From a virus: a DNA stretch of 64,000 nt. The stretch covers positions 128,001 to 192,000 of the IMG/VR virus record IMGVR_UViG_3300045988_175328; one strand, given 5' to 3'. A program made the position numbers and the translations under genes. Below are positions 19,438 to 63,644 of this stretch, in pieces (the first letter of the stretch is position 1; each line of letters starts with the position of its first letter). The notes beneath the pieces were generated by a model. It did not search any database. It was given only the letters and a program-made list of their open reading frames with translations, and was not told the origin of the DNA.

Positions 19438-20575
19438 AGACGAAATTAAAAAAATCGAATACTTTAAACAGAAGATTGTTAATATGTATTTAGCACGCGG
19501 TGAATACGCGAACGAATCAATGATTGAATCAGAATTATCTTCTTTTAATGAGCGCCTTAGTATTTTTAAACATAAATATATTGAAGATCATACGAAATTA
19601 AATGTCGAGCAATATAATGAAGAACTATGTGCTATCTATCAGGATTTAAGGATTCTTTACGAGACACTTTATGAGCTTCAAATAAAAGAGTTTAATAAAC
19701 GTAAACGAATGGTTGCTCAAAGATTAGCATATATAGGTTCTATCGCTCGTGAATATTATCACCGTTCTAGACTTGAAACGATCTCTATTTTTGGAGATAC
19801 GTTGGTATATGAATCTGGCGATTACAACTATGAATATAAAGATGGATTTACTTATATCAAATTAAATCCTATCAGCACATTTGAAGGGGCTTCTCTAGTA
19901 TTCTTAGTTGAAGATGAAAATGTATCGTCTGATCTGTTCACATTAGAATTAACTTTGACCGAGAATATTAAACCATATACGTCAAATGGAGATATTCATA
20001 CTGTTAGTGGATCTCCTAATATTAAAGAAATCCCATTTACAATTAATAAGAATTTAATTAATAAAACTGGCTATGTATTAGATCACGAATATAACCATTT
20101 GGAGAAGTATAAAATATTTCACAATAAAGGTTGTATTATGGTCGATAATACTCCTATGACATTAGCTGAATATTATAAAAAAGAATTCACTGATGAGCAT
20201 GTCGTAAAATTTTACGTACATAAAAGTACATCATTAAAGATATCAAGTACTCTAGGTTATTATGATTCTAATATCCAAAATACACCTAATGAAACAGATA
20301 AAGAGATTAAGTTTTATTATGCTAAAGTTCCGGCTTACGGGCATATTCTAATTAACACAAATGGAACATTATTCTCTGAAGTAAGTATTCCGATTGTTAA
20401 AGAAAATAAATTAATTGCCTCTACTTTAATCCAATCGGTAAGCGATCATCTTTTATCTGTAACATCTTACGATAAGCCTAAAGAATATAAGACTCCTGTT
20501 GTCGCATATAAGGGAAATCTTGATCTATCAGGACTAAAATATATAGCTGTTAAACAAGTACAATATGGTGAATAA
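19430..20575 (+). CDS. hypothetical protein
   Basis: 381-aa ORF with an 8-nt overlap to the upstream gene. Confidence 0.6.
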   Translation: MYKDEIKKIEYFKQKIVNMYLARGEYANESMIESELSSFNERLSIFKHKYIEDHTKLNVEQYNEELCAIYQDLRILYETLYELQIKEFNKRKRMVAQRLAYIGSIAREYYHRSRLETISIFGDTLVYESGDYNYEYKDGFTYIKLNPISTFEGASLVFLVEDENVSSDLFTLELTLTENIKPYTSNGDIHTVSGSPNIKEIPFTINKNLINKTGYVLDHEYNHLEKYKIFHNKGCIMVDNTPMTLAEYYKKEFTDEHVVKFYVHKSTSLKISSTLGYYDSNIQNTPNETDKEIKFYYAKVPAYGHILINTNGTLFSEVSIPIVKENKLIASTLIQSVSDHLLSVTSYDKPKEYKTPVVAYKGNLDLSGLKYIAVKQVQYGE

Positions 20576-20773
20576 ATGATCTATTATAACATAAATGCGA
20601 ATGGCGCTTGGGAGTACGACAAGCTCGCTTTGAATTATTACAATTTATTTAATGAAATTCAGTGGCGACTTGAAAAAATAAAACCCTTACTTGAAGAAAA
20701 AACTATTTCTAATAAAGCAATATATAGCGAAGAAACTTCCAAGCTATACATGCAATTAAAATATAAGGAATAA
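20576..20773 (+). CDS. hypothetical small protein
   Basis: 65-aa ORF that starts immediately after the upstream stop (TAAATG). Confidence 0.45.
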   Translation: MIYYNINANGAWEYDKLALNYYNLFNEIQWRLEKIKPLLEEKTISNKAIYSEETSKLYMQLKYKE

Positions 20774-20774
20774 T

Positions 20775-21875
20775 ATGGAATTAATTAAAAACTCTGCATA
20801 TTTTGTTAAGATGCTTGAGCAACTCGATAAAGACTATAAAGATATAGAGGCTTCAATACAATATCAGAATAAATTATACGATAAAAAAATTCAGATTATT
20901 AATGAAGTCAATCAATATAATTCTTCTCTTATCGAAAAAATTACTAAATTAAATCATAAGAATCCGGCGGCGAACGATCTTACGATTAATTCGAATAAGA
21001 TTCTTTTTACAGATACCGATAATATCGTAGAATCTCTTTCTTTGTATTCTTCGTACGGCAACTGTATTCATCCTAAAATAGTCGGCACGTTAAATAATGT
21101 ATTTAATCTTGAAACTTCGATTGGATATATGTTTAAGAATAATGCGACTGTTACGGTTAATGATAAAGAATCTGAAGAATTTACTTCTATCATTAAACAC
21201 GATTCTATTGAAAATAAAGTGCCGTATTTTGAAGTCTATAGTAATAATATTGTGACCGTTAAAATTATTGTTCCCAAGAATAGTCTTATTGGTGAAACTA
21301 CATGCAATATGATCGAGATTTCTCCGTTCCTTCCAGGAGGAGCAATTCTTGAAAATATTTTAATTGAAAGTATGGAAGGCACGGAATATAATAGTCACCA
21401 AACATTAATTAATTACTCTCAACCAATTGAGAATACTCGAATCGTATTAAGTAAAAATTACGCAGTACAAGAAATTACTCTTGTGTTCAGATTAAATTAC
21501 AAGAATAGTCAAGATTTATATCCATTCGGATTAAAGCATGTCTATCTTCTAAATGCAAACCTTGACAAGAATAGCCGTATTGTATTAAAATCTTCTTATA
21601 CGAAACTTCTTAAACAGATCGGTGAACATATCTATTTATCTGATCAGTATTCAGAAAATTTAACGGGAGAATTTAGTAAACATGATACAACATATTCGGC
21701 CGAAAAAATTAAATTGTATTCTCATTTAGCAAACGATAAATTGTTGTTTCCAATTGAGACATACACGAATACATCAATGAAACAGATATCTAGAAACACT
21801 AAAAACTTCTATGCCGACATTCCGATTGATAAATCGATGTATAGCATAGAGTTTAGAGAAATTAAGTTCGTATAA
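20775..21875 (+). CDS. hypothetical protein
   Basis: AAGGAATAATATG context. 366-aa ORF that closes the structural operon. Confidence 0.6.
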   Translation: MELIKNSAYFVKMLEQLDKDYKDIEASIQYQNKLYDKKIQIINEVNQYNSSLIEKITKLNHKNPAANDLTINSNKILFTDTDNIVESLSLYSSYGNCIHPKIVGTLNNVFNLETSIGYMFKNNATVTVNDKESEEFTSIIKHDSIENKVPYFEVYSNNIVTVKIIVPKNSLIGETTCNMIEISPFLPGGAILENILIESMEGTEYNSHQTLINYSQPIENTRIVLSKNYAVQEITLVFRLNYKNSQDLYPFGLKHVYLLNANLDKNSRIVLKSSYTKLLKQIGEHIYLSDQYSENLTGEFSKHDTTYSAEKIKLYSHLANDKLLFPIETYTNTSMKQISRNTKNFYADIPIDKSMYSIEFREIKFV

Positions 21876-21919
21876 CCTAATCATTCTATATTTTTCTGAA
21901 TTGGAGCGAACAGAAGAAA

Positions 21920-22528
21920 ATGGTCGATGCGAAGTGGTATGAACAAAACATTCTCGGGCATTCTACCGAGAAACCATACATAACTGAATATACGATAGAA
22001 TATCTTAAAGATAATGGATTTTCTGAACAAGAGATTATCGAGATCATATCCTCGGTCAAAGGAGAATATGTCTTCTATAAAGACATTCCCGATAATCTTT
22101 ACGGTACTCTCGTTGAAAAAGATAAATACTATTTTCATCCAGAGTTACAAATATTATCAAAGCCACCAGTATTTAATATTAATAATCTGACGGCAGCATC
22201 TCCTAAGTTTTTTAAAGAGATGCGAATACGATATACCGAAGAAGATCTTATCAATTACTTTCATTCAAAAGCTAATCCTAAAATCATACGGACTCCTGGT
22301 CGAGATTTTAAAGCGATTGAATACTTATGCAAAAGATATTCTACTCAACTCATGGAACCAGTAGACTGTATTCTTCATTTAATTGATGATGTCGGTTATA
22401 AGGCACGCGATTTTTTGGACATACAAAACTATGAGTTAATTACACTAGAGCGCATAGATCAAATATATTTAGATTCTGTGCGCTCTAATACTAATAAGAT
22501 AATATATCGGTGGGAACATAATGAATGA
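21920..22528 (+). CDS. hypothetical protein, first gene of the replication module
   Basis: 202-aa ORF that overlaps the DnaB-like gene by 8 nt. I recognise no motif. Confidence 0.5.
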   Translation: MVDAKWYEQNILGHSTEKPYITEYTIEYLKDNGFSEQEIIEIISSVKGEYVFYKDIPDNLYGTLVEKDKYYFHPELQILSKPPVFNINNLTAASPKFFKEMRIRYTEEDLINYFHSKANPKIIRTPGRDFKAIEYLCKRYSTQLMEPVDCILHLIDDVGYKARDFLDIQNYELITLERIDQIYLDSVRSNTNKIIYRWEHNE

Positions 22529-28430: not shown

Positions 28431-31400
28431 ATGTTCACACACTTGCATGTGCATACAGAATATAGCTTACTCGATGGCTATTGTCATATTGAAAAGTTAG
28501 TCGCAAGAGCTAAAGAGCTCGGCATGACTCATCTTGCAATTACTGATCATAACCATCTTGGCGGCATTATTAAGTTCCAAGATGTTTGTTTAAAAAACAA
28601 CATAACTCCTATATTAGGATATGAAGCCTACCAAACTTGGAATATGAGAGAGCTTGCTAAACCATTAGAAGATCGGCGAAAAGCTGCTCTACAAAAAGCT
28701 CTCGATGAAGGTGCTTTAACGGAAGATGAAGTTAATTTTTTTCTGAAGAAGAAAGTTAAAGTTAAAAAAACTAAGACTGAGATTAAAAATATTTCAGATA
28801 AATATATGTATGACTCGAAGCAATATCATTTAATATTGCTTGCTTATAATCAAACAGGGCTTAATAATTTAATTAAGTTACAGTCTGAATCCGCTAGAGA
28901 TTGTACATACAATGGCCGCTTTTTACTTGACTTTAATTTGTTAAAAAAATATAACGAAGGAATTATTTGCACTACTGCTTGCGTTGGCAGCATGCCTGCT
29001 CAATTAGTCTGGAAAGATAATTATAAAATTGCCGAAGCCGTTATCTTAAAATACAAAGAAATCTTTGGCGATCGATTCTATCTTGAAGTCCAAGACAATC
29101 AAGTCGAGATTCAGAATAAAGTTAATAACTTCTATATCGAGATGAGCGAAAAACATGGTATTGAATTAGTCGCTACTTCTGATGTCCATTATGTTCTTAA
29201 GGAAGATCATTATGATCATGATGTGTTAGTATCGATCGGGACTGGTTCTAAGATAACTGACCCTACACGTATGCGATACGATAATAACTTTTGGCTCAAA
29301 TCCGAAGAAGAAATGGTTAAAGGTTTTGAAATGCTTGTTCGCATATTTGGTGGGAAAATGGATCCGTATCTTAAGGCTATCGAAAATACAAATAAGATTG
29401 CTTCGATGGTCGGTTCTTTTTCGATTGGCAGTAAAAAACCATTAATGCCGAAGGTTCCAGGAATAGCTGGTGATACAAATCGTATTCTTCGAGACAAAGC
29501 CTTCCGTGGACTGTATGAGCTTGCTAAAACTCGTGATAATATTCGTGAAAATATTCATGAGTATGAAAAGCGATTAAGTTATGAGTTAAATATAATTAAC
29601 TATAAAGGCTTTGCCGATTATATGTTAATTGTTGAAGAATTTATTCGTTGGTCTGCCGAGAATGGTATCATGACAGGATCTGGTCGTGGATGCTCAACAG
29701 CCGGCACTTCTATTCTCTTAAATAACGGTGATATTAAGCCCATAGAGAACGTTAAAATTGGAGATAAGGTATTTACACATACAGGTATCGTTAAGCCCGT
29801 CAAAAACGTTTTTAACTATGATATCGAGGAAGACCTATATCGTATTAAAGCTGGCTCTAACGATGAGATGACATATACTGGCGACCATAAATTTTTTGTT
29901 GCAACAAAAGATAACAGTGTTCCACACTGGAAACCTATTTCTGAATTAAATGTTGGCGATAGCTTGTTAATGCCTAAGCTTAAAATTAAAGTTGATGATA
30001 CTCAAGTTATGACGTATCTTACTGAGCTTCATTCGGATTTTAATGAACGACGTGGTTTAACATATCCGACTAAAAAGATTAGAGCTAGTCATAAAGCATA
30101 TCCTTCTAAATTTTACTGGTCAAAAGATTTCATTAAGCTTTTAGGATATATTGTTTCTTCAGGATACATCCGGAATATTCGTTCCGAAGGAAAGCAGAAT
30201 TATGAAATAGCTGTATCATTTCTATCAGAAGATTCTGTTCAGGCTCAAGAGTATATAAGTCTTTGTAAAGCAGTATTTGATGAATCTCCTGTCGCAAGAA
30301 AATCAGACAATAAAAAAAGAATTGTTCTTTCAATTCAAAGTAAAGTATTAGCTGTATTTATTTCTTCGTTGATATATAATAGCGATTCTGAATTCGATCG
30401 ATTCGACAAACGAATTCCTAAACGAATTTTCACAATGAGTGATGATTTTAAAAAAGCTTTTTTGCAGCCTTTTTTTACTGGTATTAAAGGATTTCCGTTT
30501 GTAGTCGATGGTAAAACTAAAATACAAATTAGTCTCACGAATAAAAATCTGGCGCATCAATTAGTTACTTTACTTAACTTAATGGGCATCCATTCTAGAA
30601 TTGTTAGTCGGCTTTATGATACTAAATTAAATTTGTATGAATACAAAGTATCGATTGCTAAAGAATCGTATCCCGAGTTTTATGCTTTAATGGGCGTCTA
30701 TTTAACTTATAAAGAGGGATATAAACCATCAAATTATAAAACATATGCAGATTATTATGAAGTTACCATTCGAGAGTTAACAAAGTTACCTAATGTAAAA
30801 ACAAAAGTATACGATATCGAAGTCGAAAAAGACCATTCTTATATCGGAAACTTAAGTGCTGTTCATAACAGTGCCAGCGGAAGTTTAGTACTCCTCTGTA
30901 TCGGAGCAACTAAGAATATCGACCCAATAGAACATGGCTTATTGTTCGGGCGTTTCTTAACAATCGATAGAACCGGTCTTCCCGATATAGATTCAGATAT
31001 AAGTTACACTGGCCGAGAAAAAGTAATCCATCATTTAAAAGAAACTTACGGCACAAGCGCTGTTTCCCATATCGGAACTTATTCAGAGATGGGTGTAAAG
31101 TCTGGGATTAAAGATGTGTGTCGGGTACTTGGAATCGATTTCTTAGAATCGAATATGATCTCGAAAGAGATCGATTTAATTGAAGCTGTTCCGCCGCAAC
31201 CTAAGTTTAAACACTTTGATGCACTAAAGAATAGCACTAACCCAACAGAACAATCAATGTGGAGACGCTTCGATAATCTCGAAAAAAAATATCCAGAAGT
31301 ATTCAGGCTCGCTCGAAACTTCGAAGGATTAAAACGAGGTTTTGGAGTTCATGCTAGTGGCATCTTGGTTATGCCATGTGAAGTAACAGATTATTTCCCG

Positions 31401-31925
31401 ACACGTGTCGATGACTTTGGTGTCAGCATTTGTTTGTTTACTGGGGTAGAAGTCGAAGCAAAGAATGCTGTTAAGCTTGATGTGCTAGGATTAAAAACCT
31501 TAAGTATCATAGAAGATACGCTAAAGAATTTAAATAAAACTATCGACTGGCTTTATGAAGTTGCTAATATTGAAGATCATAACATATATGAGATGATTGC
31601 CAATTCGGAAACAGATTGTGTATTCCAATTAGAATCAGATATGTTTAAAGATATGATGAAATATTTGCAGCCAACAGACTTTCAAGATATCGTCGCCGCT
31701 ACTTCATTAGGTAGACCAGGACCATTAAGCCAAGGCATGGATAAAGATTATTCGCATCGGAAACATGGTCGAGAAGAAATAAGTTTTATTCTGCCGCGGA
31801 TTGAAAATATATTAGATAGAACCTACGGCGTCATCTGCTATCAGGAACAGCTAATGGCCATATCAAAGCAAGTTAGTGGCTTTGATGATAATCAGGCAGA
31901 TAGTATCTCGAGAAAAATTATTGCT
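28431..31925 (+). CDS. dnaE: DNA polymerase III alpha subunit (DnaE), exon 1, includes an intein
   Basis: PHP motif FTHLHVHTEYSLLDG. GSGRG|(intein)|SASGSLVLLCIGATKNIDP matches GPGRGSAAGSLV..L.IT.IDP. Catalytic PDIDSDIS. The exon ends ...SRKIIA (cf. LRRAMGKKK), with a T before the TAATAATAGG intron start. Confidence 0.9.
29691..30869 (+). mobile_element. intein (393 aa) in DnaE with a degenerate LAGLIDADG-type endonuclease domain
   Basis: It starts at Cys (CSTAGTSILLNNGDIKPIENVKIGDKV). Block B is MTYTGDHKFFV. It ends ...VYDIEVEKDHSYIGNLSAVHN followed by +1 Ser. Removing it restores the conserved GRG-SASGSLV motif. The LAGLIDADG-like LLGYIVSSGY lacks the acidic residue. Confidence 0.85.
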
Positions 31926-32208
31926 TAATAATAGGCCTCCTATAAAGTAATTTATAGTGAGCATCGTGTGAACTCCAAAATGGAGGTGTTTGATTTAGAT
32001 CAAGCTAACGGTAAAAACCTAAGTCTATTTAGATATGGAAATACCGTGCCAAGCCTCATGTTGAGGAAGGTGTAACGACTATGGATGATGAGTGTAATCC
32101 AGTAGAGGAACCAAGGTGAAAGACCAAATTCGAAGCGCACGACAACCATTTTGGTTGAAGAGATAGTCTACTCCCCTAAGAAATATCGGGAAACCGAGGG
32201 TATCAAGG
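31926..32208 (+). mobile_element. group I intron 1 in dnaE (283 nt, ORF-less)
   Basis: It starts TAATAATAGG after exon T31925. R-like GGTGTAACGACTATGG and S-like GAAGAGATAGTCT are present. It ends at G32208. Splicing gives SRKIIA|KKKQELMPML, matching the conserved ...GKKK.EEM of DnaE. Confidence 0.8.
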
Positions 32209-51890: not shown

Positions 51891-51901
51891 TATATCTTAA
51901 T

Positions 51902-51945
51902 CCTCCCTTACTTCTTAACTGGAGTAAGGGAGGTATTTTTTTTAT
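51902..51945 (+). terminator. rho-independent terminator closing the fibre/lysis module
   Basis: CCTCCCTTACT (51902-51912) / AGTAAGGGAGG (51923-51933), then TATTTTTTTT. Confidence 0.85.
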
Positions 51946-52201
51946 TAGTGTTAGGTGGGGTCTAGTGACGGTTCTTTTAATAAGGAAAGAAAATGAGTAT
52001 AAATATATATAAGATGGAGAGTACAGGCTGGCCGACATTTATGTCGATCAGTTAAGTGGAAGTGTAGTTAGAATGGGGGTTGTTGGGTCTTAAAATGGAA
52101 ATAATAAAATAAAGAGAAAAATAGCAAAACATATTCTGACTGAAATTTAGGAATAGTAATAAGAGTAATTTGTTTTGGTCGAAGTATTGTTTGCGAGACG
52201 G

Positions 52202-52403
52202 AAATAAATAAATGAATTTTGATGACATAGGTCGAGTTAGCTGTGTAGGTCGATAGACGTGTTTTATACGTAAGCCAGATTTTGTGAAAAATTTAAAAAT
52301 AAATAAGAAAATAAATAAATGCTGATTTGTTGTGGTAGGTCAAGTTAGATGCGTAGGTTGACAGGCGTGTTCTGTAAGTGAACTAGAATTTTGTAGAGAA
52401 TTT
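52202..52403. repeat. two imperfect direct repeats of ~95 bp with a 107-bp period, each holding two TAGGTYRA boxes
   Basis: Both copies start AAATAAATAAATG (52202, 52309) and continue ...TTTG.TG...TAGGTC.AGTTAG.TG.GTAGGT.GA.AG.CGTGTT...GA.TTTTGT....AATTT, about 75% identical by eye. They lie in a 700-bp C-poor non-coding region. Confidence 0.75.
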
Positions 52404-52594
52404 GGAGGGGGAAGTGTTTTATGAAGATATTAGAGTGCTGAGAAATCATGCCCCCGGGTGCTTGATTCTCGGAACTCTCACTACTTTTGCGCCATATAGT
52501 AGCCAGGCGCATTTCTAAATGTGGTTACGACGAGCCTTTCTGACTGGAGCTCGTTTCAATCCAGTCGAATTTGTTCAGAAAAGGAGAAATTATC

Positions 52595-55500
52595 ATGAAC
52601 AAACAAAACATTCAAAACAACAAAAATTTAAAAGCTGTCGTATTGGCAGCAGTAGATGCAGCAGTAGCTGCTGATGTGCGCGTGGTTAATACCACTGCGG
52701 CGGTAACAACCGCAGAAGCAGTAGTTACTGAAACTGCAGAAACACTTGCGCGCGCAGCGGTACAGTTTCAAACATTTATCAACAATTTTGTAGTAGAAGG
52801 AGGCGAGTATCGTAGCTTCATGGGCATTCTATCTGATGTAGGATTTACACATCCAGATCTTGTTAAATGGGTGCGTAAACAAAAATGGACAGAAGCAATG
52901 TCTATTTGGAGAGAGGGTCAAGGATACACACGTAATTCTTTCCTTTGTGATGAAGACTGGAATACATTCCTCGAATTACGGGAAGCCCTCCTTCAAGCGC
53001 GCAATGCGTACAAAAACGCAAAACGTAAATTAGCTAGAAAAGAAGTCGCATTAAAAGCAGCAAAAAAAGAGGCAGCAAAAGCCTTATTAGCAGAGAAATC
53101 TGCAAACAAACAATGGAAAAAGGCGAGAAAGGATGCGAAAGAAGCAAGAGCTACTGAAGCAGCAGTAGCAGTCGAAGAGGCTCGATTAGAAAAAGCACGA
53201 AAACGTGCTGAAAAAGTGGGTCCGAAGGAACCGCCAAAACAAAGAGTGGCCGTAGCTGTTGCTGGTCTTGAGTCCATGTTAGAATGGATCGAATCTAGAA
53301 AGGTAGCTGTTACTAAAACAGTTGTATTAGAAAATACAGCTAAATTAGTAACAGAAGCTAACGCAGCTGTTGAGTACGGTTATATGGATGCTAGAACTGG
53401 AGAATTTGTTTCTACAGAAGGAACAAAAGAGTTCTCTGGTGCTAGATTCAAAACTGGTGCTATCAACATTGCCGATAAAAATACTGCTAAAGCAACAGCA
53501 AAAGCCAACGCTACTGCTAATGGTAAAGATTTAGATGGAGACGTCATAAATCGCTTCGTTAAACCTAGAAATATCCTTGATGGATTCAAACTTAAATTGC
53601 AAATGTTTGGATCTAAAGTACGTGTGCGTAACGTACTTAAAGGTAATCGTAAAGGTTTTAAAGCTGTAATGGGACCAAAAGCACAAGTTGCTATTAAGTC
53701 CATTATCGTTGACGGTAGCGACGTAATGGCTAATGGTGAAGGTGTAAAAGCTATGGCAGTAGCAACTACATCCTCCATTAGCTATATTGTACGTACAGCA
53801 ATTCGTCTTGGCGAAGAAAAAGGATGGGCTGAAGAGCTTGTTCTTAGAAATTCTTCTATTAAGACTGGCTATATGGATGGCAACATCGGTATCAACTCTC
53901 ATAGAGAGATGACATCGATGGAAGCCGATTTAACATATATGACTGCAGAAGTATCTGCTAATTATGTGTTGAATGGCTTAATCTCCATTCATATCGATAA
54001 AGAGGATGAGGAAGGCGTATCCTTCACAAAGGGCATTCGTCAAGCAGAATTCATTATCGTTGATGGAATTAAATACATTCCGTTAATGGTTGAGTCTGTT
54101 GCGAAGACTCGTCTATACGATACAGTATGGACAGCTGAGCATCTGGCTAACCAATGGCGCGAAGTGCTTCGTGTAGCGACAGGAGGAATCTCTGACAGTA
54201 TTACTCTAATGAAAGAGTTAACTAAAGCTCTTAAATTGAGAAGCCGTTTGGGAATGGGGTTCTCTCCTAGCTATGAGTTCGAAATCGATCTTGCACGTTG
54301 GGGCGTTGTGTATCTTGACGCTTCTATCGATGCAATCGACGGACAAGCTTACGGAAGCAGAGCTATGATGGAAGAGCTTCTTGAACTAGCTGGCGTGAAC
54401 TCATGGCAAGTTCGCACGAATACAGGTAAAGGACAACTCGTTCCAATGAAAAGAATGAAACGTCTACTTGCTGTATTGTGCGAACAATACGGTCTTGAAC
54501 TCGTTTACGTTTCTGACGTTGACGAAGTTCAAGCAGCTATTGATGCAGCAAGAGCTGAAGGTAAAAGAGTAGCCGTTGTTGTTGGTAACGCCGAACATAT
54601 TGGCATGATCGGCGATATGAATTTCTTTAAAGGAATTCCGACTATCAATGATGGTGGCATTGTTCGTCTAAGCGTCTTGAGAAATCTTGCACCAACAGGC
54701 AACGGCTCTCACTTCGCTTACCAGGCAGCAGTGGGTGCTTTATGCTCTTACGAATGGGATAATAAAGACCGTTTCGTAAAAGCATTGGCTATGCAAGCCG
54801 TTGAAAAATTCACAGAAGCTTTCAATGGCTGTGCTGTTAATAAATCTGTAACTGATTTGTTTGCAGCATTAGTTGGAGTAAAAGGATTGGCTGGCGAAGC
54901 TGATATCATCAGCGAATTAGCCAACGGTGCATTTACTCCAGCTATGTATGGCATTAAAGAGCTTTCCTATGCGTTAAGAAACGAGCAACAAGTTGTTCGT
55001 GGTAGTGCATGGAAAGTTTCTTGCCCAGGCATGAAGGACGAGCTATTTAACGAAGCTATTCTTGAAGGAGCTGGCCTACTTGTTGTAGAAGGAATTGTTT
55101 CTAATAACAATCCTTTACTAAAACAAGGCGATTGGGTGATGGCATTGAGATACCCACATTCCAATGGGTTCTCTTTCGTTAAAATCAGACTTGTAACAGT
55201 ATCTGAAGCTATCGAAAGAGTGAACAACTCTTCCGCGTTTGCGGCTCAAAAAGCTGTCATGATCGATGAGCTATTATCCCTTGGTGATAATAACATCATG
55301 GTAGACAGCAGCCGTGAGGTATTGGAAGCATTAGCTGGTATGGATTTTGATGGAGACGTGATCTCTGTCTTAAATCCAGAAGAAGCAGAGTTGCTTTTGC
55401 CAATGGATGAGCTACGTACAGTCATTGCTCCGATCGTAACGAAAGCTCAAGAAAAAGAGCTTGTTGTTACAGGAAACTTTGAAGATACAATGCAACATCT

Positions 55501-57397: not shown

Positions 57398-57408
57398 CAA
57401 ATAATAAT

Positions 57409-57448
57409 AAAGAGAGACCTCTATATGGGGTCTCCTCTTTTTTTTTAT
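57409..57448 (+). terminator. rho-independent terminator after the polymerase-like gene
   Basis: GAGACC (57414-57419) / GGTCTC (57429-57434), extendable with a bulge, followed by a 10-nt T run. Confidence 0.8.
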
Positions 57449-58004
57449 TTTCTGGGATCCCCTCCGGGATCAGGATTCCTCCGCTACGGCTCAGCCTGCG
57501 CTCCGGAATAGGCCAGCCTATGGCTGTCCGTTAGGAGCGTTATCATTAGGTAGAGGTATAACGATAGAGGAAATAAAAATCCTCATTTATGAGGGTTTAT
57601 CCTTAGTAAGGAGGAAGATAGAAAGTAAAAATGTTTTTCTTCTTAAGGGGCAAGCCCCTTAACAACCCCGCCACCCCTGCGGGATGGACCGAACTGGCGG
57701 TGGATGAGGTCGTCCGAAACGACGTCAAACTAAAGGAAAAATCCTCACTTGTGAGGAAACTTGCTCCTGAGTACGAGCTAAAACTGCTTGCGAGGAAAAA
57801 TCCTCGTTGTTGAGAGCACTTGCTCTTCGAAGGCCCTGGCGGTGTCGGAGAGAGGAGTAGGTGCTGTGGTCCTGAATAAGACATTAAACTGTTTCAGAGG
57901 AGAAAATCCTCTGTTGTGAGAGAGCTCATTTAACTCTCTGTTTTAATTAAGCCAGTGTAGAAATATTTGCTGGTGTTTTCGGGCGCATGCCCAAGGAGGT
58001 TATC

Positions 58005-58469
58005 ATGTTAACTTTAGAATTAAATCGAAAAATGGCCTATGGTTTTTTCCCAGAATTAATTCGCGATGAAGAGAAAATTGCGAATTTGAATGACTTATTT
58101 CAAGAAGTTATTATGAAAAATAATCCTAACGGAGTTAAGCTCCAATTGGATTTTAAGCACAATGTAATTGTGCATAAAACCAATGTAGGCGAAGTAACTC
58201 TAGTAGAAGAGTACTTCCCTAATGGTACTGAAAAACTTTGGGTAAATCGTTTCCGTAACAGGAAACAACTATTACCTAAAGTTCCTGCAGAATTAATTCC
58301 TGTCGCAAAAGAATGCGACGAAAGAAATTTATACAAATTTAATTATTTAAGAGAAGGAAACATTACGTTTTATCTCGCAAATAATAGAAAGGTTCTCGTA
58401 AGAGAAACTAAAATGGAGGATGGAAGTCTTTCAATCGATTTATTCTACCTAGCTGATTTGTTGGCCTAA
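58005..58469 (+). CDS. hypothetical early-type protein
   Basis: AAGGAGG lies 6 nt before ATG 58005. The track's ATG at 57987 lies inside the leader hairpin. Confidence 0.6.
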   Translation: MLTLELNRKMAYGFFPELIRDEEKIANLNDLFQEVIMKNNPNGVKLQLDFKHNVIVHKTNVGEVTLVEEYFPNGTEKLWVNRFRNRKQLLPKVPAELIPVAKECDERNLYKFNYLREGNITFYLANNRKVLVRETKMEDGSLSIDLFYLADLLA

Positions 58470-58640
58470 GTAGAATAATCTCCTAAGCATGAGAATAAAC
58501 TGCTTATTTGTAACGGCTCCTGAATATGAGCATTAAACTGTTCTAGAAGAAAATCCTCTATTATGAGTTTTGTCCGTAATGACGATAAACTAATTATTAT
58601 AATTTAATTTGGCGGCAAATCGCCAGAAAGGAGGCATATT

Positions 58641-58796
58641 ATGTCTCAATTAGAATTAACAAACCACTTAGCGTGGGTAGAAGAAATGGTTGCATTCGCG
58701 GAGACTGAAGAGTCCAACTACCGTGACTTCGAAGGATATCTTGCGGAGTCATTTATCGGAGGCCTGGACCTCTGGCTAGGAGACGATGAATTTTAG
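58641..58796 (+). CDS. small acidic protein (51 aa), absent from the ORF track
   Basis: The full cassette lies upstream (TAAACT, AT tract, GGCGGCAAATCGCC, AGGAGG, 7 nt, ATG). It encodes MSQLELTNHLAWVEEMVAFAETEESNYRDFEGYLAESFIGGLDLWLGDDEF. Confidence 0.6.
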   Translation: MSQLELTNHLAWVEEMVAFAETEESNYRDFEGYLAESFIGGLDLWLGDDEF

Positions 58797-58934
58797 ACTC
58801 TAGTTTCCTGACCAAGACCTAGGTATGTCTTTAAACTGCCTAAATCCTCCCCATTGCGGGGACTGAATTGTCTGAGATGACGTTAAACTATTTAATTTAA
58901 TTCATGGCGGCAAATCGCCAGAAAGGAGATAAGT

Positions 58935-59225
58935 ATGCATACTTATACTCTTGAAAACACTGAGGCACTAGTTGCCTTAGTGCGTGACCTTTGTTTTAGC
59001 AATGGTCATTGTCCCAAAGAAATCTTCTCTTGGGATGAAAAACATTACATTGTAGCCGGCAACCTAGCTAGTTACGATGGACCATGGGACGGTCCTGAAG
59101 ATGTCGCTCATATCTACGTTGATGGTGTAGGCGTGGGAGAAATAGATATCTTCGGCGCCGACCAAATTGCATTCGCCGTTGCTAACTGGAACGGCGAAGA
59201 ATTGAACAGAAAGGTGGTGGCTTAA
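58935..59225 (+). CDS. hypothetical small protein (B-module-like N-terminus)
   Basis: Cassette plus AAGGAGA SD. TLENTEALVALVRDLCFSNG resembles the xLxxLVEYIxKxxG helix of the 61817/62582/63071 family. Confidence 0.6.
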   Translation: MHTYTLENTEALVALVRDLCFSNGHCPKEIFSWDEKHYIVAGNLASYDGPWDGPEDVAHIYVDGVGVGEIDIFGADQIAFAVANWNGEELNRKVVA

Positions 59226-59255
59226 CTGCTTTTCTGTAATCTCGTCGACCACTCG

Positions 59256-59639
59256 GTGGATGTTTACGATTTAGTAGGAAATCTAATCGTGAGCATCCCT
59301 AAGAGTGGTCGTGTAGCTCGTGTTCGGACAAGTAGCGAAAGAGTGGGCGCTATTTGTTCTAAGGATTTTAGCTATCGAAAATACAATGAAGACGGTAGCT
59401 ATGAAGATACACCACTTAAAGGGAACCCACAATCTGGGCACCTGAATATATTCAAATCTGAGTATTCAGATGTCGAAGGGTTCCCTGAAACTATAGAACA
59501 GGGTGTGTATTATATTGTCAGTTCTATGGTGGCGTCTCGTATACAGAGTCATCAGGTTATTGCGCCTGGTCAGATTATGCGGGACGCCTCCGGCAAAGCC
59601 GTAGGATGCTGCGGTCTTAGTTATACTGCCGGAAGATAA
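59256..59639 (+). CDS. hypothetical protein (GTG start, uncertain)
   Basis: 127-aa ORF with no clear SD. It follows 58935..59225 by 30 nt. Confidence 0.45.
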   Translation: MDVYDLVGNLIVSIPKSGRVARVRTSSERVGAICSKDFSYRKYNEDGSYEDTPLKGNPQSGHLNIFKSEYSDVEGFPETIEQGVYYIVSSMVASRIQSHQVIAPGQIMRDASGKAVGCCGLSYTAGR

Positions 59640-59682
59640 ATTAATTAATTTAAATAGGGCCCGGATGCTCGAGGAGGTAATG

Positions 59683-59856
59683 ATGAAGAATATAATTATC
59701 GTATGCATGCTATCACTAATCTGCACTATAGCAATAGTGGAATTTTCAGTAGGCTTGTTCCCAGCATTAGCTGGGTATCCAGAAGCATTGGCTACAGCAG
59801 GAGCTATTTCTGTTGCAACTATTTCCTTCATGTTGTTTGACATGATAGGAGACTGA
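59683..59856 (+). CDS. small hydrophobic membrane peptide (57 aa)
   Basis: GAGGAGG at 59671-59677; the start is ATG 59680 or 59683. It has two hydrophobic segments and is a paralog of 59952..60122. Confidence 0.55.
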   Translation: MKNIIIVCMLSLICTIAIVEFSVGLFPALAGYPEALATAGAISVATISFMLFDMIGD

Positions 59857-59951
59857 AAAATCCTCGTTTATGAGGAGAAGTCCGTAATGACTGTAAACTA
59901 TTCTAATATATTTAATTAATTAAAGGGCGCAAATGCCCGGAGGAGGTTTCT

Positions 59952-60122
59952 ATGAGAGACGAAATCATTTTATTAATTTCCAGCATTGCAGTAGGAGTGG
60001 GAATTTCTACTCTTATTAATGAGGTTTTCCCTATATTAGTGGATTATCCATTAGTAATGTCTATCTTCGGAGGAATCATCTCAGGAGCGATATATTATTT
60101 TATTCACTTGTTATCATACTAG
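59952..60122 (+). CDS. small hydrophobic membrane peptide (56 aa), absent from the ORF track
   Basis: The full cassette lies upstream with GGAGGAGG SD. It encodes MRDEIILLISSIAVGVGISTLINEVFPILVDYPLVMSIFGGIISGAIYYFIHLLSY. Confidence 0.6.
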   Translation: MRDEIILLISSIAVGVGISTLINEVFPILVDYPLVMSIFGGIISGAIYYFIHLLSY

Positions 60123-60295
60123 TAGAATAAAATCCTCAGACCTCAGCAAGTCTTTAAACTACTCTTTCCTGACAGTTCCTAAGTATGAACATAAAACTGC
60201 TTATCTTTTAAAAATCCTCGCTTGTGAGGTGCTTGCGTAGAAATAGCAAGCTATATTATTTTAATTAGGCCTTAGGCCAGAAATGGAGTTTTATC

Positions 60296-60766
60296 ATGAA
60301 AACACAAAAATCTACAGAACGCAAATTAGTTAATTTTTCTAGCTACTTTAAACAAAAAGACGACAAAGTCTTTGGTGCTGCTGTATTGCACTGCGGCAAG
60401 GAAGTGCAAGTTGCTGCTTACAATGGCGGCAAAGCCCTTCATTCTATTGAAGGAGCTGTGTGTGCAGCAGCATGCGCAGCTACAGTAAATATGAAGAAGG
60501 GAGACCTCTTCACCATGATTGTTGACTTGAAGACATTACGCCAATTATGGTCTGCTATTAAAACTGGCAATGTAACTGATGACTTCGCAGGCAATGAGGC
60601 GGAACGCAATGCCGTTATCAAAATGGCCGAACGCGTTCCAGCCCTTCGGGCTCGCGGCATTATTGTGAACATTCGTGCTCATAAAGATGTCTATGCAAGT
60701 GGAGGATACTTAGCAGGGCAACTCCCAATTTGGAGCCGTATGGCTACCAAAGCTATGAACATCTAA
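60296..60766 (+). CDS. hypothetical protein
   Basis: Leader hairpin plus TGGAG SD. 156-aa ORF, Ala/Cys-rich in the centre (GAVCAAACAATV). Confidence 0.6.
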   Translation: MKTQKSTERKLVNFSSYFKQKDDKVFGAAVLHCGKEVQVAAYNGGKALHSIEGAVCAAACAATVNMKKGDLFTMIVDLKTLRQLWSAIKTGNVTDDFAGNEAERNAVIKMAERVPALRARGIIVNIRAHKDVYASGGYLAGQLPIWSRMATKAMNI

Positions 60767-60851
60767 ATCCTCTGACCTGAGCATGTCGGTAAACTGCTCA
60801 ATTATTTAATTTAATTTAATTAAGGGCGGCAAATCGCCCGAGGAGGTTTAT

Positions 60852-61337
60852 ATGCAAACTTTGAAAATTAACAATCCTACAAGAAACTTAATTGAGATGA
60901 CTTTAGAGGTCACAAAATTAAACGGCACTATTGAACAAGACGGCAATGCTGTTATCATTAATTTGCCAGAAGAACAGGTGTCTGCCTTTGTAGAATGGTA
61001 CGGTGGTACTGGACTTAAGGAGACTGCCCTTGCCATCGCAAAGAAAGCAGGAGCATTAACTGCCAAAGCAGGAGACCTTACGAAAGTAGGGACTGTTGCT
61101 TTAGGAAAATTATCTTTCAAGACAGCCTTCGGTATGACTCGCAGAGCCATTGAGGCGACCGCGGGGATCACAGCTGCGGCCGTTAATGGCGCCAAAGAAG
61201 CTTATAGCGAAATGGTAAGTTCTGACGAGTTCAGAGCTGTTAAAGAATCTTTTAGTTCTGGACGCGGCAACGGCATTGAATTTGTCGAAATGACACCGGT
61301 TGTTCAAGCTGAAGTAGCAGAAGTTGTAGAAGGATAG
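60852..61337 (+). CDS. hypothetical protein
   Basis: Full cassette plus GAGGAGG SD. 161-aa ORF. Confidence 0.6.
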   Translation: MQTLKINNPTRNLIEMTLEVTKLNGTIEQDGNAVIINLPEEQVSAFVEWYGGTGLKETALAIAKKAGALTAKAGDLTKVGTVALGKLSFKTAFGMTRRAIEATAGITAAAVNGAKEAYSEMVSSDEFRAVKESFSSGRGNGIEFVEMTPVVQAEVAEVVEG

Positions 61338-61409
61338 AAATCCTCAGACCTGAGCAAGTCGTTAAACTGCTTAATTTAAATTGAATTATATTTTATGGAG
61401 GGAACTGTC

Positions 61410-61523
61410 ATGAATAAAGAAGTTAAACAAATTATTGCATCTATCGGAGTATTAGGATTGTGTTACGCAGTCGGATACGCTATTGGCTATTTCGGATTTA
61501 ATCTTGTTAAGAAAATTAAATAA
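61410..61523 (+). CDS. small membrane peptide (37 aa), absent from the ORF track
   Basis: TGGAGGG SD 8 nt upstream. It encodes MNKEVKQIIASIGVLGLCYAVGYAIGYFGFNLVKKIK, one TM segment with basic ends. Confidence 0.5.
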   Translation: MNKEVKQIIASIGVLGLCYAVGYAIGYFGFNLVKKIK

Positions 61524-61533
61524 AGGAGGCTAC

Positions 61534-61794
61534 ATGACTATTTCTGAACTTGAGGGCGCCATTAAAATGATGTTCATCATTTACGGCGAGCCGACCGCAA
61601 CGAATATTGGCTACGGTGTTTTCAGAGTCACCGCTAGTGATGCTGAAATCCTTATTGAGAGGATTGATACTACTGGTGGATCTAGTATTAAACTGACTGG
61701 TCCGTCTGGTTCTATTGAAAAAGACGAGCCGTCTTTAGAATTTAGATTGTTGGTTGACCGTCTAGAGCGAGTTGTAGACGGTTATAATTATTAG
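61534..61794 (+). CDS. A-module-only member of a small-protein family
   Basis: AAAGGAGG lies 5 nt before ATG 61534; the track start at 61483 would overlap the 37-aa peptide gene. It resembles the N-terminal halves of 61817 and 62582. Confidence 0.6.
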   Translation: MTISELEGAIKMMFIIYGEPTATNIGYGVFRVTASDAEILIERIDTTGGSSIKLTGPSGSIEKDEPSLEFRLLVDRLERVVDGYNY

Positions 61795-61816
61795 TTTATC
61801 TGTAAGGAGAAACATT

Positions 61817-62302
61817 ATGGAATTACAAGTAATTAAAGGTATGGTTATTGCGGCAAAATTAGCAAACAAATTTATGGGCGGCGCCTTGGAAAACAATCGT
61901 GCCGAGCTCCAAATCGGTGACGTGAATTTAGTTATTTACAGCGCTGGCGGAAACGAGGTAGTAATTGCTCCAACTTCTATGGAGATGTGGTATGACCCAA
62001 TCCATGTTGAAGGAACTTTGGAAACTGTCTTCGATACCATCGGAGAGATGCTAAAAGAAGCTGTCGAAGATGACGAAGACTCTCCATATCGTTACGAGTT
62101 TCCTAACTTAGAGCGCCTTGTCGAGTATATCGAGAAAGAAACAGGTGTCGTAGCTAACGAACATCCTAAATGCTATACTAAAGAATGGGACGGTATTATG
62201 GAATTCGACGAGTTCAAAATCGTTTTCTTTGGGCCATACCATGGTACTGTATATGTGCCGGAAGATTACAAACTTAACTTTGTGTTGAAAGAGTTACCAT
62301 AA
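61817..62302 (+). CDS. A+B two-module family protein
   Basis: Clearly and extensively similar to 62582..63061 along its whole length, e.g. SPYRYEFPNLERLVEYIEKETGVVANEHPK...FKIVFFGPYHGTVYVPEDYKLNFVLKELP. Confidence 0.7.
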   Translation: MELQVIKGMVIAAKLANKFMGGALENNRAELQIGDVNLVIYSAGGNEVVIAPTSMEMWYDPIHVEGTLETVFDTIGEMLKEAVEDDEDSPYRYEFPNLERLVEYIEKETGVVANEHPKCYTKEWDGIMEFDEFKIVFFGPYHGTVYVPEDYKLNFVLKELP

Positions 62303-62313
62303 GGAGAAATATT

Positions 62314-62568
62314 ATGGAATTAATTAAAGGATTATTCATTGGCGCCGCCTTACTAGGCAAACCAGTTCTCGTTAAGAAAGAACGGAAGGGCGTATACAAT
62401 TTTATTATCGGGCCGATCACAGTTTTTATCTATGATTGGGATGACAGTCGCACTATCGTCGGTATTGATGGACCAGAAGGTTCATACGAATCTTACAAAA
62501 TCGACGGGGATGTGAGAACAGTATTACACTACCTTGTAGATGTCAACAATAATATCGAGATTAAATAG
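62314..62568 (+). CDS. A-module-only family member
   Basis: MELIKGLFIGAALLGKP... parallels MELQVIKGMVIAAKLANK... and MKIIEGLIMAARLANK... Confidence 0.6.
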   Translation: MELIKGLFIGAALLGKPVLVKKERKGVYNFIIGPITVFIYDWDDSRTIVGIDGPEGSYESYKIDGDVRTVLHYLVDVNNNIEIK

Positions 62569-62581
62569 GAGTATTATTGCT

Positions 62582-63061
62582 ATGAAAATTATTGAAGGTT
62601 TAATTATGGCTGCAAGATTAGCAAATAAAGATATAACATATCGACTAGAAATTAATTATGCCGAATTTAAGATTGGAGATATTACTTTAGATATCTACAT
62701 AAAAGATAAAAATATAGTTATGATTACTCCGACTTGTGAGAACATGTGGGGACAGCCACTCTATATCGAAGGAACAGTCGGGTCTGTTTTCTCTGATATC
62801 TTAGACATGGTAAACGAATCAGATGTCGATTCTGAGAATTCTCCGTATCGTCAGCGCTTTTCAAATTTAAAATCTTTGGTTGAGTACATCGTAAAAGAAA
62901 CGGGAGCTATTGCAGGAGAACATCCCAAACGTTATATCGAAGAGTGCGCTGACGTTATCGAATTCATTGAATTTAAAGTTGTATTATTCGGGCCATATCA
63001 TGGAACAGTGTATGCTCCCGAAGATTACCAACTGAACTTTGTTTTAGACGAATTACCGTAA
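62582..63061 (+). CDS. A+B two-module family protein (paralog of 61817..62302)
   Basis: TAGGAG SD before ATG 62582; the track start at 62540 overlaps the upstream gene. SPYRQRFSNLKSLVEYIVKETGAIAGEHPK...FKVVLFGPYHGTVYAPEDYQLNFVLDELP. Confidence 0.7.
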   Translation: MKIIEGLIMAARLANKDITYRLEINYAEFKIGDITLDIYIKDKNIVMITPTCENMWGQPLYIEGTVGSVFSDILDMVNESDVDSENSPYRQRFSNLKSLVEYIVKETGAIAGEHPKRYIEECADVIEFIEFKVVLFGPYHGTVYAPEDYQLNFVLDELP

Positions 63062-63070
63062 GGAGAATTT

Positions 63071-63295
63071 ATGATGGTATTATATTTCGATACAGTTGAG
63101 GAGCTTATCGAATATTTTAAAAAGAAATCTGGATTCGAGCCGGGGCCTGTGAAAATTATTCGTTATTCTGATGGCGCATTCGATATTGTATATGGAGATA
63201 TCGAGCTAGAATTCGAGAATAAGATTAAAGGTTCCGTCTTGTTCTGTGGCGACTTTATGGTTCGCTTCGAACTTGGCACTCCCGTCGTAATCTAA
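63071..63295 (+). CDS. B-module-only family member
   Basis: FDTVEELIEYFKKKSGFEPGP...IELEFENKIKGSVLF parallels the C-terminal halves of 61817 and 62582. Confidence 0.6.
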   Translation: MMVLYFDTVEELIEYFKKKSGFEPGPVKIIRYSDGAFDIVYGDIELEFENKIKGSVLFCGDFMVRFELGTPVVI

Positions 63296-63347
63296 AAAAT
63301 CCTCGTTGGCGAGGTCGTATTTAAAATTTAATTAAGGAGGAATTATT

Positions 63348-63611
63348 ATGAACATGTCTTATTACGGAAGCTTATTTGATTTGGTAGAAGATATTAAAAA
63401 AGACTGCGGCGGATGGGAAACGTACAGTTATAAAGCCAAAGGCAATCAGTTAGACATTGAATTCTTTTTGGGCGACGATATCGTATGTAAGGCTGTCTTC
63501 GTGTTCGAGAAAAACTTAATCGAAGGATCTTATGTTGTCGACGAAGATATTTATGACTTCTCGGTTAAAACGGATGAAGTATTACACCATTTGTTTGCAC
63601 GTTTAGGTTAG
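63348..63611 (+). CDS. B-module-like small protein
   Basis: AAGGAGG SD. YGSLFDLVEDIKKDCGGWE helix. Preceded by motif copy 12 and followed by a terminator. Confidence 0.6.
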   Translation: MNMSYYGSLFDLVEDIKKDCGGWETYSYKAKGNQLDIEFFLGDDIVCKAVFVFEKNLIEGSYVVDEDIYDFSVKTDEVLHHLFARLG

Positions 63612-63617
63612 TTGCTT

Positions 63618-63644
63618 GGGTCCTTCGGGACCCTTATTCTTTTA
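63618..63644 (+). terminator. rho-independent terminator (UUCG tetraloop)
   Basis: GGGTCC (63618-63623), loop TTCG, GGACCC (63628-63633), then TTATTCTTTT. Confidence 0.75.

Follow-up and report, generated by a model that had tools for sequence, protein, structure and literature searches.

Short conserved structures that punctuate the early genes of phages are, as a general kind, already known. Coliphage N4 combines a T7-like RNA polymerase (RNAP) with promoters that are template-strand DNA hairpins of 5-7 bp stems and 3-nt loops, the PeSL of T4-type phages is an early promoter plus a stem-loop placed between small early genes, with sigma-70 promoters and plain stem-loops, and RNase III sites, such as those among the early genes of T7, where processing between cistrons leaves protective hairpins, consist of about two helical turns of double-stranded RNA, roughly 20 bp. 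At RNA 3′ ends, small H-type pseudoknots (evopreQ1 and mpknot) protect against exonucleases (PMC13042712). In Thermus phage P23-45, the promoters of the gp96 virion RNAP are AT-rich, and a 26-nt motif is conserved among seven terminators (PMC10770324); we located this motif as a repeated GC hairpin followed by a T-run beside small genes. Here we analyse a 64-kb stretch of viral DNA, positions 128,001 to 192,000 of the IMG/VR record IMGVR_UViG_3300045988_175328 (the window), in which small genes downstream of a predicted single-chain RNAP gene are bounded by the box AAATCCTC with its hairpin, termed the T element, by a pseudoknot built around a TAAACT box, termed class A, and by a hairpin followed by TAAACTA, termed class B. 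No similar DNA was found for this stretch in known phages.

The region after the RNAP gene can be described as a cluster of small early-type genes whose boundaries would follow a four-part RNA grammar: the pseudoknot, a clade-specific box AAAAUCCUC that is usually the 5′ arm of a short hairpin, an AT-rich TTTAATT box, and a GC hairpin abutting the Shine-Dalgarno sequence. Like the PeSL, these are short modular cassettes that flank small early genes of a plastic region, but the window lacks the sigma-70 consensus and its elements are a pseudoknot and an invariant 9-mer. The structures lie between nearly all early cistrons of one polycistronic strand, as the early RNase III sites of T7 do, and the role that we propose, to make and protect RNA ends, is the same; however, the window stems are of 4-10 bp, the key element is a pseudoknot and cleavage is a proposed step here. 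The pseudoknot is like preQ1-I and pistol RNAs in its H-type topology, in its size and in the A-rich strand that follows stem 1, whereas it occurs in many copies after stop codons and not in the 5′ leaders of queuosine genes.

An invariant box and a covarying pseudoknot between small genes

The initial annotation of this sequence reported AAATCCTC hairpins and TAAACT boxes, confined to the region downstream of a polymerase-like gene, and took them for a private code. Counting both motifs on both strands of the window, we find twelve exact copies of AAATCCTC, as reported, all on the + strand and all within 57577-63304 (starts at 57577, 57739, 57798, 57904, 58551, 58842, 59858, 60130, 60212, 60765, 61338 and 63297), and none elsewhere in the 64 kb on either strand, so the confinement holds. 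Shuffling of the whole 64 kb, with both strands counted, gave an expectation of 3.76 ± 1.87 copies per 64 kb, about 0.3 per 5.7 kb, and twelve copies were reached in 0 of 100 shuffles. Read against the table of open reading frames (ORFs), every copy is intergenic, the first four being overlapped only by mechanical ORFs without ribosome-binding sites. Five of the twelve begin 0-8 nt past a stop codon and the remaining copies come after other elements, while the last copy before a gene stands 51-101 nt from the next start codon, in agreement with the 50-100 nt first given for the hairpins. The packed genes at 61535-63295 have no such elements between them. The cassettes do mark gene boundaries, which supports this part of the initial annotation.

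Nine of the twelve copies form a hairpin of the type CCTCN-4nt-NGAGG, and the three that had been set apart as variants (60130, 60765 and 61338) are fused directly to a CTGAGCAAGTC..TAAACT unit, giving ..GAC-CTGAGCAA-GTC-N-TTAAACTGCT. The relatives available for comparison were L001 (RNAP 95% identical), L003/L004 (78%) and L006 and L007 (about 35%). In all of them the AAATCCTC sequence is invariant and shows no covariation; the partner arm of the hairpin varies, and the longer stems of L007, CCTCCTC/GAGGAGG and CCTCTCC/GGAGAGG, show it to be a genuine hairpin. At the fifth pair of the T hairpin, A-U is seen in 17 cases, G·U in 19, G-C in 3 and A·C in none, a wobble pattern that indicates a sense-strand structure. 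None of the twelve is followed by a T-run on the + strand, again as first noted. Neither these hairpins nor the nine pseudoknots described below have, on the + strand, the GC-rich hairpin with an immediate U-tract that defines an intrinsic terminator, and with a longest stem of 9 bp (57576-57599) and 4-6 bp in the others, the hairpins fall outside the definition of an RNase III site.

The TAAACT box is likewise real, with 11 of its 29 + strand copies, and 7 of the 8 copies of TAAACTG, found in 57.4-64 kb. By comparative sequence analysis, the box is loop 3 of a sense-strand H-type pseudoknot. This consists of a 4-bp stem 1, the loop C-UGAGCA-A, the return strand of stem 1 and N-UUAAAC-UGCUCA, so that loop 1 is a single C, loop 2 is 1-2 nt and loop 3 is the A-rich N-UUAAAC; in minimum-energy folding, stem 2 can be extended to 6 bp, UGAGCA/UGCUCA. 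A triplex between loop 3 and stem 1 is predicted. Stem 1 is formed by the 3-4 bases that flank the 8-nt loop CTGAGCAA, and these pair across the window and its relatives as GAC/GTC, GCTC/GAGC, TCTC/GAGA, GTTC/GAAC, ACTC/GAGT and ACCTC/GAGGT. Stem 2 is formed by loop positions 3-6 and the four bases right after AAACT, and varies as GAGC/GCTC, GGAC/GTCC, GGGC/GCCC, GAAC/GTTC and TGGT/GCCA. Both helices therefore carry the compensatory changes that define an H-type pseudoknot. About ten unpaired nucleotides within the 30-nt fold are nearly invariant.

Covariation was assessed over 52 distinct pseudoknot copies from related jumbo-phage contigs, with 500 shuffles as control. Paired cells amount to 90.4% versus 72% in the shuffled alignments, a value reached in 0 of 500, and 95 double-change cells are observed against 33.7 expected, double changes being seen at 7 of the 9 pairs. 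When the registers are slid by 1-3 columns, pairing falls to 27-42%. The wobbles are again asymmetric, with 20 U·G at column pair 18-33 and only 3 C·A, which places the pseudoknot on the sense strand, most simply as RNA. Our confidence that these are genuine RNA structures of the sense strand is high.

A covariance model of the hairpin and TAAACT unit, run over the whole window with filters off, returned nine strong units (E ≤ 0.005) and three weak class B units, all on the + strand and within 57755-61378, and no other match with E below 0.3. The class B units have the form GTC-CGTAAT-GAC-NN-TAAACTA; a stem 2 was sought for them and rejected, as no consistent pairing with the downstream AT-rich sequence was found, and class B is a hairpin-only relative. 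No Rfam family reaches its gathering score in the window, and Rfam 15 held no relevant match with E ≤ 1 in 6.6 kb, nor with E ≤ 10 for a 106-nt query. The preQ1-I (RF00522) and Pistol (RF02679) models were among those without a match. Loop 2, which in preQ1-I carries the ligand-pairing C, has only 1-2 nt here. Pistol has a P1 hairpin, a pseudoknot and P2/P3 helices with a G-U cleavage site, while in the window the 3′ strand of stem 2 comes right after the linker, with no P2/P3. Literature string searches for the motifs returned primer noise only. Within Rfam 15 and these literature searches, both the clade-specific code and the widespread pseudoknot are undescribed, and the chance that the pseudoknot represents a new class of functional RNA is substantial.

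All the elements are on the + strand. A canonical intrinsic terminator follows the RNAP gene (GAGACCTCTATATGGGGTCTC then a T-run, 57414-57445), and T element 1, an AAAATCCTC hairpin with a 9-bp stem (57576-57599; −9.6 kcal/mol, z −4.2), opens the series. It is followed by a class B-like hairpin with CAAACTA (57709-57735), T element 2 (57738-57757), the class A pseudoknot GCTC-CTGAGTAC-GAGC-TAAAACT-GCTT (57763-57790; E 7e-7), T element 3 (57797-57813), another class A pseudoknot (57868-57895; E 5e-6) and T element 4 (57903-57920). Two class A pseudoknots come next, one beginning 9 nt past the stop at 58469 (58479-58506; E 5e-8) and one at 58516-58545 (E 0.005), with T element 5 (58550-58567), the class B unit GTC-CGTAAT-GAC-GA-TAAACTA (58571-58596), a TTTAATT box (58603) and the pre-Shine-Dalgarno hairpin GGCGGCAAATCGCC (58611-58624). 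Next come a class A pseudoknot (58815-58842; E 9e-8), T element 6 (58842-58862), a class B unit (58869-58894), TTTAATT boxes at 58891 and 58896 and a pre-Shine-Dalgarno hairpin (58906-58919). T element 7 begins immediately past the stop at 59856 (59857-59875), ahead of a class B unit (59879-59904), a TTTAATT box (59911) and the hairpin GGGCGCAAATGCCC (59925-59938), also of the pre-Shine-Dalgarno type. Further on are a fused T box and class A pseudoknot that is degenerate, with a CTCAGC loop and an ACTC tail (60129-60165; E 7e-9), a class A pseudoknot (60175-60203; E 8e-5) and T element 9 (60211-60229); a second fused unit whose box is overlapped by the stop TAA (60765-60800; E 3e-10), with TTTAATT boxes at 60805-60821 and the pre-Shine-Dalgarno hairpin GGGCGGCAAATCGCCC (60824-60839); and a third fused unit (61338-61373; E 1e-10). 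T element 12 (63296-63314) has a TTTAATT box after it at 63327, and a canonical terminator-like hairpin with a T-rich tail (63618-63643) follows the gene at 63348-63611.

The remaining two parts of the cassette lie next to the start codons. A TT[TA]AATT box is found 21-63 nt before the start codon of eight cassette-bearing genes, at 34-47 nt in six of them, and none is present upstream of the packed genes. The GC hairpin usually comes after this box and directly abuts AGGAGG; its stems covary (GGCGGCAAATCGCC, GGGCGCAAATGCCC and GGCCTTAGGCC, with a GTAGAAATA-loop type in relatives), and the hairpins right before AGGAGG fold with −9.5 to −9.9 kcal/mol. Sigma-70-like promoters are not enriched between the genes.

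The pseudoknot beyond the clade and its position relative to genes

The pseudoknot was sought in IMG/VR with two pattern scans, each of which returned at least 120 loci. In the first (CTGAGCAA-N5-8-AAACTGCTC), stem 1 was left unspecified, and with a 6-nt spacer it was nevertheless fully paired in 118 of 119 copies among the matches listed, with many different stems. In the second, stem 1 was fixed and stem 2 free (GACCTNNNNAAGTCNNNAAACT); among the matches listed there are 123 distinct copies, and in 100 of them stem 2 is paired at each of its four positions, where chance would give about 2%; these copies use 21 different tetramers. The pseudoknot thus occurs in hundreds of unrelated phage contigs and is not private to this clade. 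The box behaves differently, as AATCCTC combined with the pseudoknot was found only three times outside the clade (L010, L343 and L344), cases that may be due to chance, and AAATCCTC appears almost confined to the clade; the idea of a private code therefore survives for AAATCCTC and fails for the TAAACT unit.

The carriers include relatives of 36-40 kb temperate Lactobacillus phages, and prophage Lj965 has a copy with three of the four stem-2 pairs, 7 nt past the minor head gene. Many copies, including those of marine-type contigs, come after a DUF932 gene. In seven marine-type IMG/VR loci (L033, L059, L077, L085, L092, L126 and L010) a fixed order of DUF932 gene (phrog_1221), pseudoknot and tRNA, often tRNA-Asp, was observed near ribonucleotide reductase genes. 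BLAST of the IMG/VR carriers gave mostly just tRNA or weak gene matches.

We then considered position relative to genes over 278 distinct IMG/VR copies among the matches listed. A same-strand ORF stop lies at most 200 nt upstream in 206 of them, and among these 206 the distance from stop to stem 1 is 0-3 nt in none and 4-9 nt in 99, with a peak at 5-7 nt. The window keeps the rule, with a TAA at 60764-60766 and stem 1 from 60773, and in the fused units the AAATCCTC box occupies the 5-9 nt spacer between stop codon and pseudoknot. Since 4-9 nt would be the nearest position that is not unfolded by a ribosome with the stop codon in its A site, we infer that the pseudoknot sits as near to the upstream stop as the terminating ribosome allows.

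In 27 of 119 copies among the matches listed, a same-strand tRNA gene begins 4-12 nt downstream, an arrangement in which cutting by RNase P would create a 3′ end just beyond the pseudoknot. The MALAT1 triple helix adjoins an RNase P-cleaved tRNA-like element, and these 27 loci are similar in arrangement. Like MALAT1, and like evopreQ1 and mpknot on prime editing guide RNAs (pegRNAs), the window pseudoknot is a compact H-type structure with an A-rich loop 3 at what would be an RNA end, although those examples are eukaryotic or synthetic and the exonuclease resistance of the phage pseudoknot is putative; to our knowledge, a natural phage-wide counterpart of such 3′-protecting pseudoknots has not been described. 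In L344, a JGI contig, the order is stop, TAATCCTC, pseudoknot and TTGACA-18-TATAAT, which puts the pseudoknot at the end of the upstream unit and not in the promoter. A U-rich tail (at least 5 T in the next 8 nt) is present in 54 of the 278 copies (19%). As a separate observation, in L040, L149, L189, L207, L145 and L219 the pseudoknot is followed by a conserved T-rich tail, TTTTT(G/T)TATGC(C), which in L145 and L219 runs into TATGCTATAAT, an extended -10-like sequence, and suggests a terminator-then-promoter junction in these two.

The neighbouring RNA polymerase and the possible role of the cassettes

The gene next to the cassettes starts at the ATG at 52595, behind AGGAGA, and runs to 57397 on the + strand with a product of 1600 aa. 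The initial annotation had called it polymerase-like, and on the evidence of its motifs and of a structural model it is a single-chain two-barrel RNAP, whose activity is predicted. The motifs are RTNTGKGQ (residue 607; RxxxxKG), RYPHSNG (852) and GMDFDGD (917), and even homologs with as little as 19-27% identity keep the GxDxDxD triad, the upstream R/K and the P of RYPH unchanged; the enzyme thus has the features by which two-barrel RNAPs are defined, a DxDGD metal-binding loop in one double-psi beta-barrel and conserved basic residues in a second. Searches with the RNAP sequence (Pfam, PHROGs, phmmer and a profile on the sequences of the PDB, and tblastn on 50,697 phage records) returned nothing. 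AlphaFold2 gave a pLDDT of 40 for residues 401-1600, and a usable model was obtained only from a 251-residue core with 12 sequences, residues 760-1010, with pLDDT 70-93 over the core. With this model the top Foldseek matches in the PDB are the P23-45 gp96 virion RNAP structures 8h2n and 8h2m (probability 1.00, E 3e-3), ahead of the largest RNAP subunits (beta-prime) of bacteria, plastids and archaea, QDE-1, Pol IV-RDR2 and the phiKZ non-virion RNAP, and the match is confined to the first barrel. The gene comes after tail and lysis genes, and its homologs are found only in metagenomic contigs of 222-225 kb, which points to a jumbo phage.

In L006 and L007 the flanks of the gene are close to the window at the nucleotide level (71-77% identity over 52246-53469 and 90% over 57405-57816), while the RNAP core cannot be aligned to that of the window as DNA and has about 35% protein identity to it. 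Both relatives nevertheless have the same AAATCCTC/TAAACT code, and its persistence beside such a different core argues against the code being an enzyme-specific promoter or terminator language. Together with the presence of the pseudoknot in hundreds of unrelated contigs, this leaves the earlier suggestion that the code is tied to this polymerase unsupported, and the pseudoknot probably signals an RNA end and is not a promoter reserved for the adjoining enzyme.

In light of these data, the elements may well be RNA-level boundary cassettes that end or cap the upstream RNA and provide a new 5′ end and a protected downstream message, an explanation that we prefer tentatively and with limited confidence as to function. 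In this scheme the pseudoknot, and probably the AAAUCCUC hairpin, would end and cap the upstream RNA, the pseudoknot blocking 3′-to-5′ exonucleases by its structure and being terminator-like where a U-rich tail is present. The AT-rich stretch would be the site of the new 5′ end, made either by endonuclease cleavage or by initiation at an AT-rich promoter as in P23-45, and protection of the downstream message at its 5′ end would fall to the GC hairpin. The elements themselves, their strand, covariation and positions and the wide distribution of the pseudoknot are observed directly, while the capping or defining of RNA ends, and the enzyme that makes them, are proposals. RNA processing, which the initial annotation had offered as an alternative, comes close to this explanation as far as RNA-level ends are concerned, with cleavage itself as a conjectural step. 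A narrower proposal, possible but doubtful, is that the TAAACT pseudoknot represents an undescribed and very widespread class that serves phages as a natural exoribonuclease-resistant 3′ cap, comparable to the xrRNAs and to the MALAT1 triple helix with its RNase P site, and that in this clade it has been joined with AAAAUCCUC into a punctuation code for early transcripts.

Several points weigh against boundary cassettes. The phage is uncultured, and a function for its cassettes is read purely from sequence. The U-rich tail, found in 19% of the IMG/VR pseudoknots among the matches listed and in none of those in the window, is too scarce for termination to be general. AAATCCTC stands 5′ of the pseudoknot in the fused units and 3′ of one in other intergenic regions, so that no single cleavage-and-cap order fits every cassette; moreover, it is invariant whether paired, as in the hairpin form, or largely unpaired, as in the fused form, which would fit recognition as duplex DNA, in a promoter or terminator box, equally well as or better than recognition as RNA, and the strict conservation of AAAAUCCUC is left unexplained. 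Capping of coding messages would also not account for the arrays of T elements and pseudoknots in gene-free leaders, at 57.4-58.0 kb in the window and over about 1.8 kb in L007, and the conserved loop nucleotides (C, A and AAAC) could point to a protein, a ligand or catalysis instead of passive stability.

In the main alternative explanation, the cassettes punctuate transcription by the two-barrel RNAP of the phage itself in the style of P23-45, with AAAATCCTC and the hairpin or pseudoknot as an unusual factor-independent terminator or pause, TTTAATT as an AT-rich promoter and every small gene as its own transcription unit. The gp96 enzyme, also a two-barrel single-chain phage RNAP, is the closest structural relative of the one found here, and in P23-45 too small genes are flanked by short conserved motifs, an AT-rich promoter and the 26-nt motif shared by its seven terminators (PMC10770324). 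The position of the invariant 9-mer right after stop codons and not among the packed, operon-like genes, the fairly fixed distance of TTTAATT from start codons and the lack of an excess of sigma-70 promoters all fit such punctuation. However, one would not expect the specificity of a promoter or terminator to persist beside RNAP cores only 35% identical, the pseudoknot is shared with phages lacking such an RNAP and is not polymerase-specific, T elements stand in tandem in gene-free leaders, and the U-tract is absent. The P23-45 motif is an ordinary GC hairpin with a T-run, unlike the window elements, in which the conserved box is 5′ of the hairpin and a pseudoknot is involved; the P23-45 mRNAs look leaderless, whereas the window genes have long leaders with Shine-Dalgarno sequences, and gp96 is fused to the tape measure protein while the window RNAP is free-standing. 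We consider this explanation rather unlikely. Hairpins acting as N4-type DNA promoters for the adjoining polymerase, as the initial annotation proposed, or as antisense terminators, are far less credible and largely refuted. It is true that short hairpins with conserved flanks lie before small early-type genes beside a giant phage RNAP gene, as in N4, and that on the minus strand the AAATCCTC hairpins read as a hairpin followed by ATTTTT, four of which a terminator scan detects. But the G·U pairs of the sense strand become C·A mismatches on the template strand, leaving 4-bp stems, for which reason the antisense reading was rejected; the stems are of 3-5 bp and the loops of 4 or 8 nt, and not 5-7 bp and 3 nt; the enzyme has the DFDGD double-psi-barrel fold and is not a T7-like virion RNAP; and a covarying pseudoknot, which also occurs in phages without this RNAP, has no rationale in a DNA promoter.

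Two further possibilities concern the pseudoknot by itself. It could act on the ribosome, modulating termination or recycling or blocking 70S scanning and re-initiation, since a pseudoknot 4-9 nt past the stop meets the mRNA entrance when the stop is in the A site. The sharp spacing, with no case at 0-3 nt and the peak at 5-7 nt, is also the window known for pseudoknot-stimulated recoding, as in -1 frameshifting and murine leukaemia virus (MuLV) readthrough. Yet in-frame stops within a few codons (TAA ATC CTC TGA at 60764) make readthrough products implausible, many clade copies lie in gene-free arrays or 15-80 nt from any stop, and the spacing is explained equally by the nearest position that a terminating ribosome leaves folded, so that we regard a ribosomal role as improbable. 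Slightly more improbable still is that the RNA itself is catalytic or binds a ligand, either as a tiny ribozyme that cleaves itself and is akin to the 5′ half of pistol or as an aptamer like preQ1-I. The stem 1-UUAAA linker does resemble pistol and preQ1-I/evopreQ1, the many nearly invariant unpaired nucleotides in so small a fold would be in keeping with either, and RNAs whose function is self-contained typically spread, as here, over phages whose hosts differ widely; against this stand the lack of any Pistol, PreQ1 or other match in Rfam 15 at E ≤ 10 with the 106-nt query, the absence of P2/P3 helices for a pistol substrate, a loop 2 too short for a preQ1 pocket and the presence of twelve or more copies per gene cluster, unlike a riboswitch.

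If the pseudoknot is a general 3′-end cap or terminator-like signal, it would be among the commonest structured RNA motifs in phage genomes. It would then mark gene ends and transcript boundaries and so improve phage annotation, provide a small, naturally evolved element for stabilising synthetic RNAs, and reveal a way in which phages protect messages without relying on host terminators. In this clade, AAAATCCTC and TTTAATT are candidate signals for a new branch of single-chain two-barrel RNAPs.

Mosaic polymerase alleles and other features of the region

The RNAP gene is a mosaic in which two core alleles, about 35% identical, stand between conserved flanks. An Ala/Lys-rich N-terminal domain of about 340 aa is present in the RNAP of the window and of L006/L007; the RNAP of L001 has 1262 aa without this domain, and three extra genes lie upstream instead. 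In the L007/L008 lineage a 658-aa protein is inserted right after the RNAP gene (L007 15409-17385), upstream of the 1.8-kb array of about ten pseudoknot and T units. With its AAA_33 kinase, poly(A) polymerase/CCA-adding and HD domains, it looks like an RNA-end repair or tailing enzyme, to judge from these domain matches. A genome terminus upstream of the RNAP gene, where the L004, L006 and L008 contigs end, was considered and dropped as the ends differ: they lie at varying positions within the genes upstream, in two cases in a gene with a Gp10_C domain, which is present twice, and they are probably an assembly effect.

On either side of the RNAP gene there is noncoding sequence. The 700-bp stretch before it (51891-52594) opens with a strong canonical terminator (51902-51943), and two direct repeats of about 70 nt lie around 52225-52295 and 52335-52405 (GTAGGTCgAGTTAG..GTAGGT.GA.AG.CGTGTT). 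Right after the RNAP terminator, a GC-rich, hairpin-rich block at 57446-57575 is about 90% identical to L006 despite the replaced RNAP core; it has no Rfam match and could represent a structured RNA of small size. An element of 27 nt, TTAAGGGGCAAGCCCCTTAACAACCCC, which is a palindromic hairpin with a C-rich tail, is found at 57643-57669 and recurs, conserved, in the leaders of the clade (L001 21760 and 22765, L004 6130 and L007 18368); it is neither a T element nor one of the pseudoknots.

In L001, a 2.1-kb gene-free region (19890-22050) begins about 170 bp past the right end of the window. It contains GCGAGCGAAGCGAGC repeats, and (C/G)AGTAATATAAG is present six or more times with a hairpin behind it, such as AGTAATATAAGTCTCGAAGAGACTTAAC. 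Together these resemble a further, distinct set of units of promoter-like or small-RNA type, and L004 and L006 have gene-free gaps of the same size. Within the cluster of small genes, 58935-59225 and 59226/59256-59639 are in the same frame with a single TAA between them, and the conserved N-terminus of the second, LLFCNLVDH, has a CTG start here and a GTG with its own ribosome-binding site in L004; the arrangement at 59223-59258 could be a non-canonical start or stop-codon readthrough. Elsewhere in the window, the DNA polymerase III alpha gene at 28431-31928 (PHP, NTPase and finger domains) is split by an intein, with Intein_splicing and Hint matches at residues 420-813.

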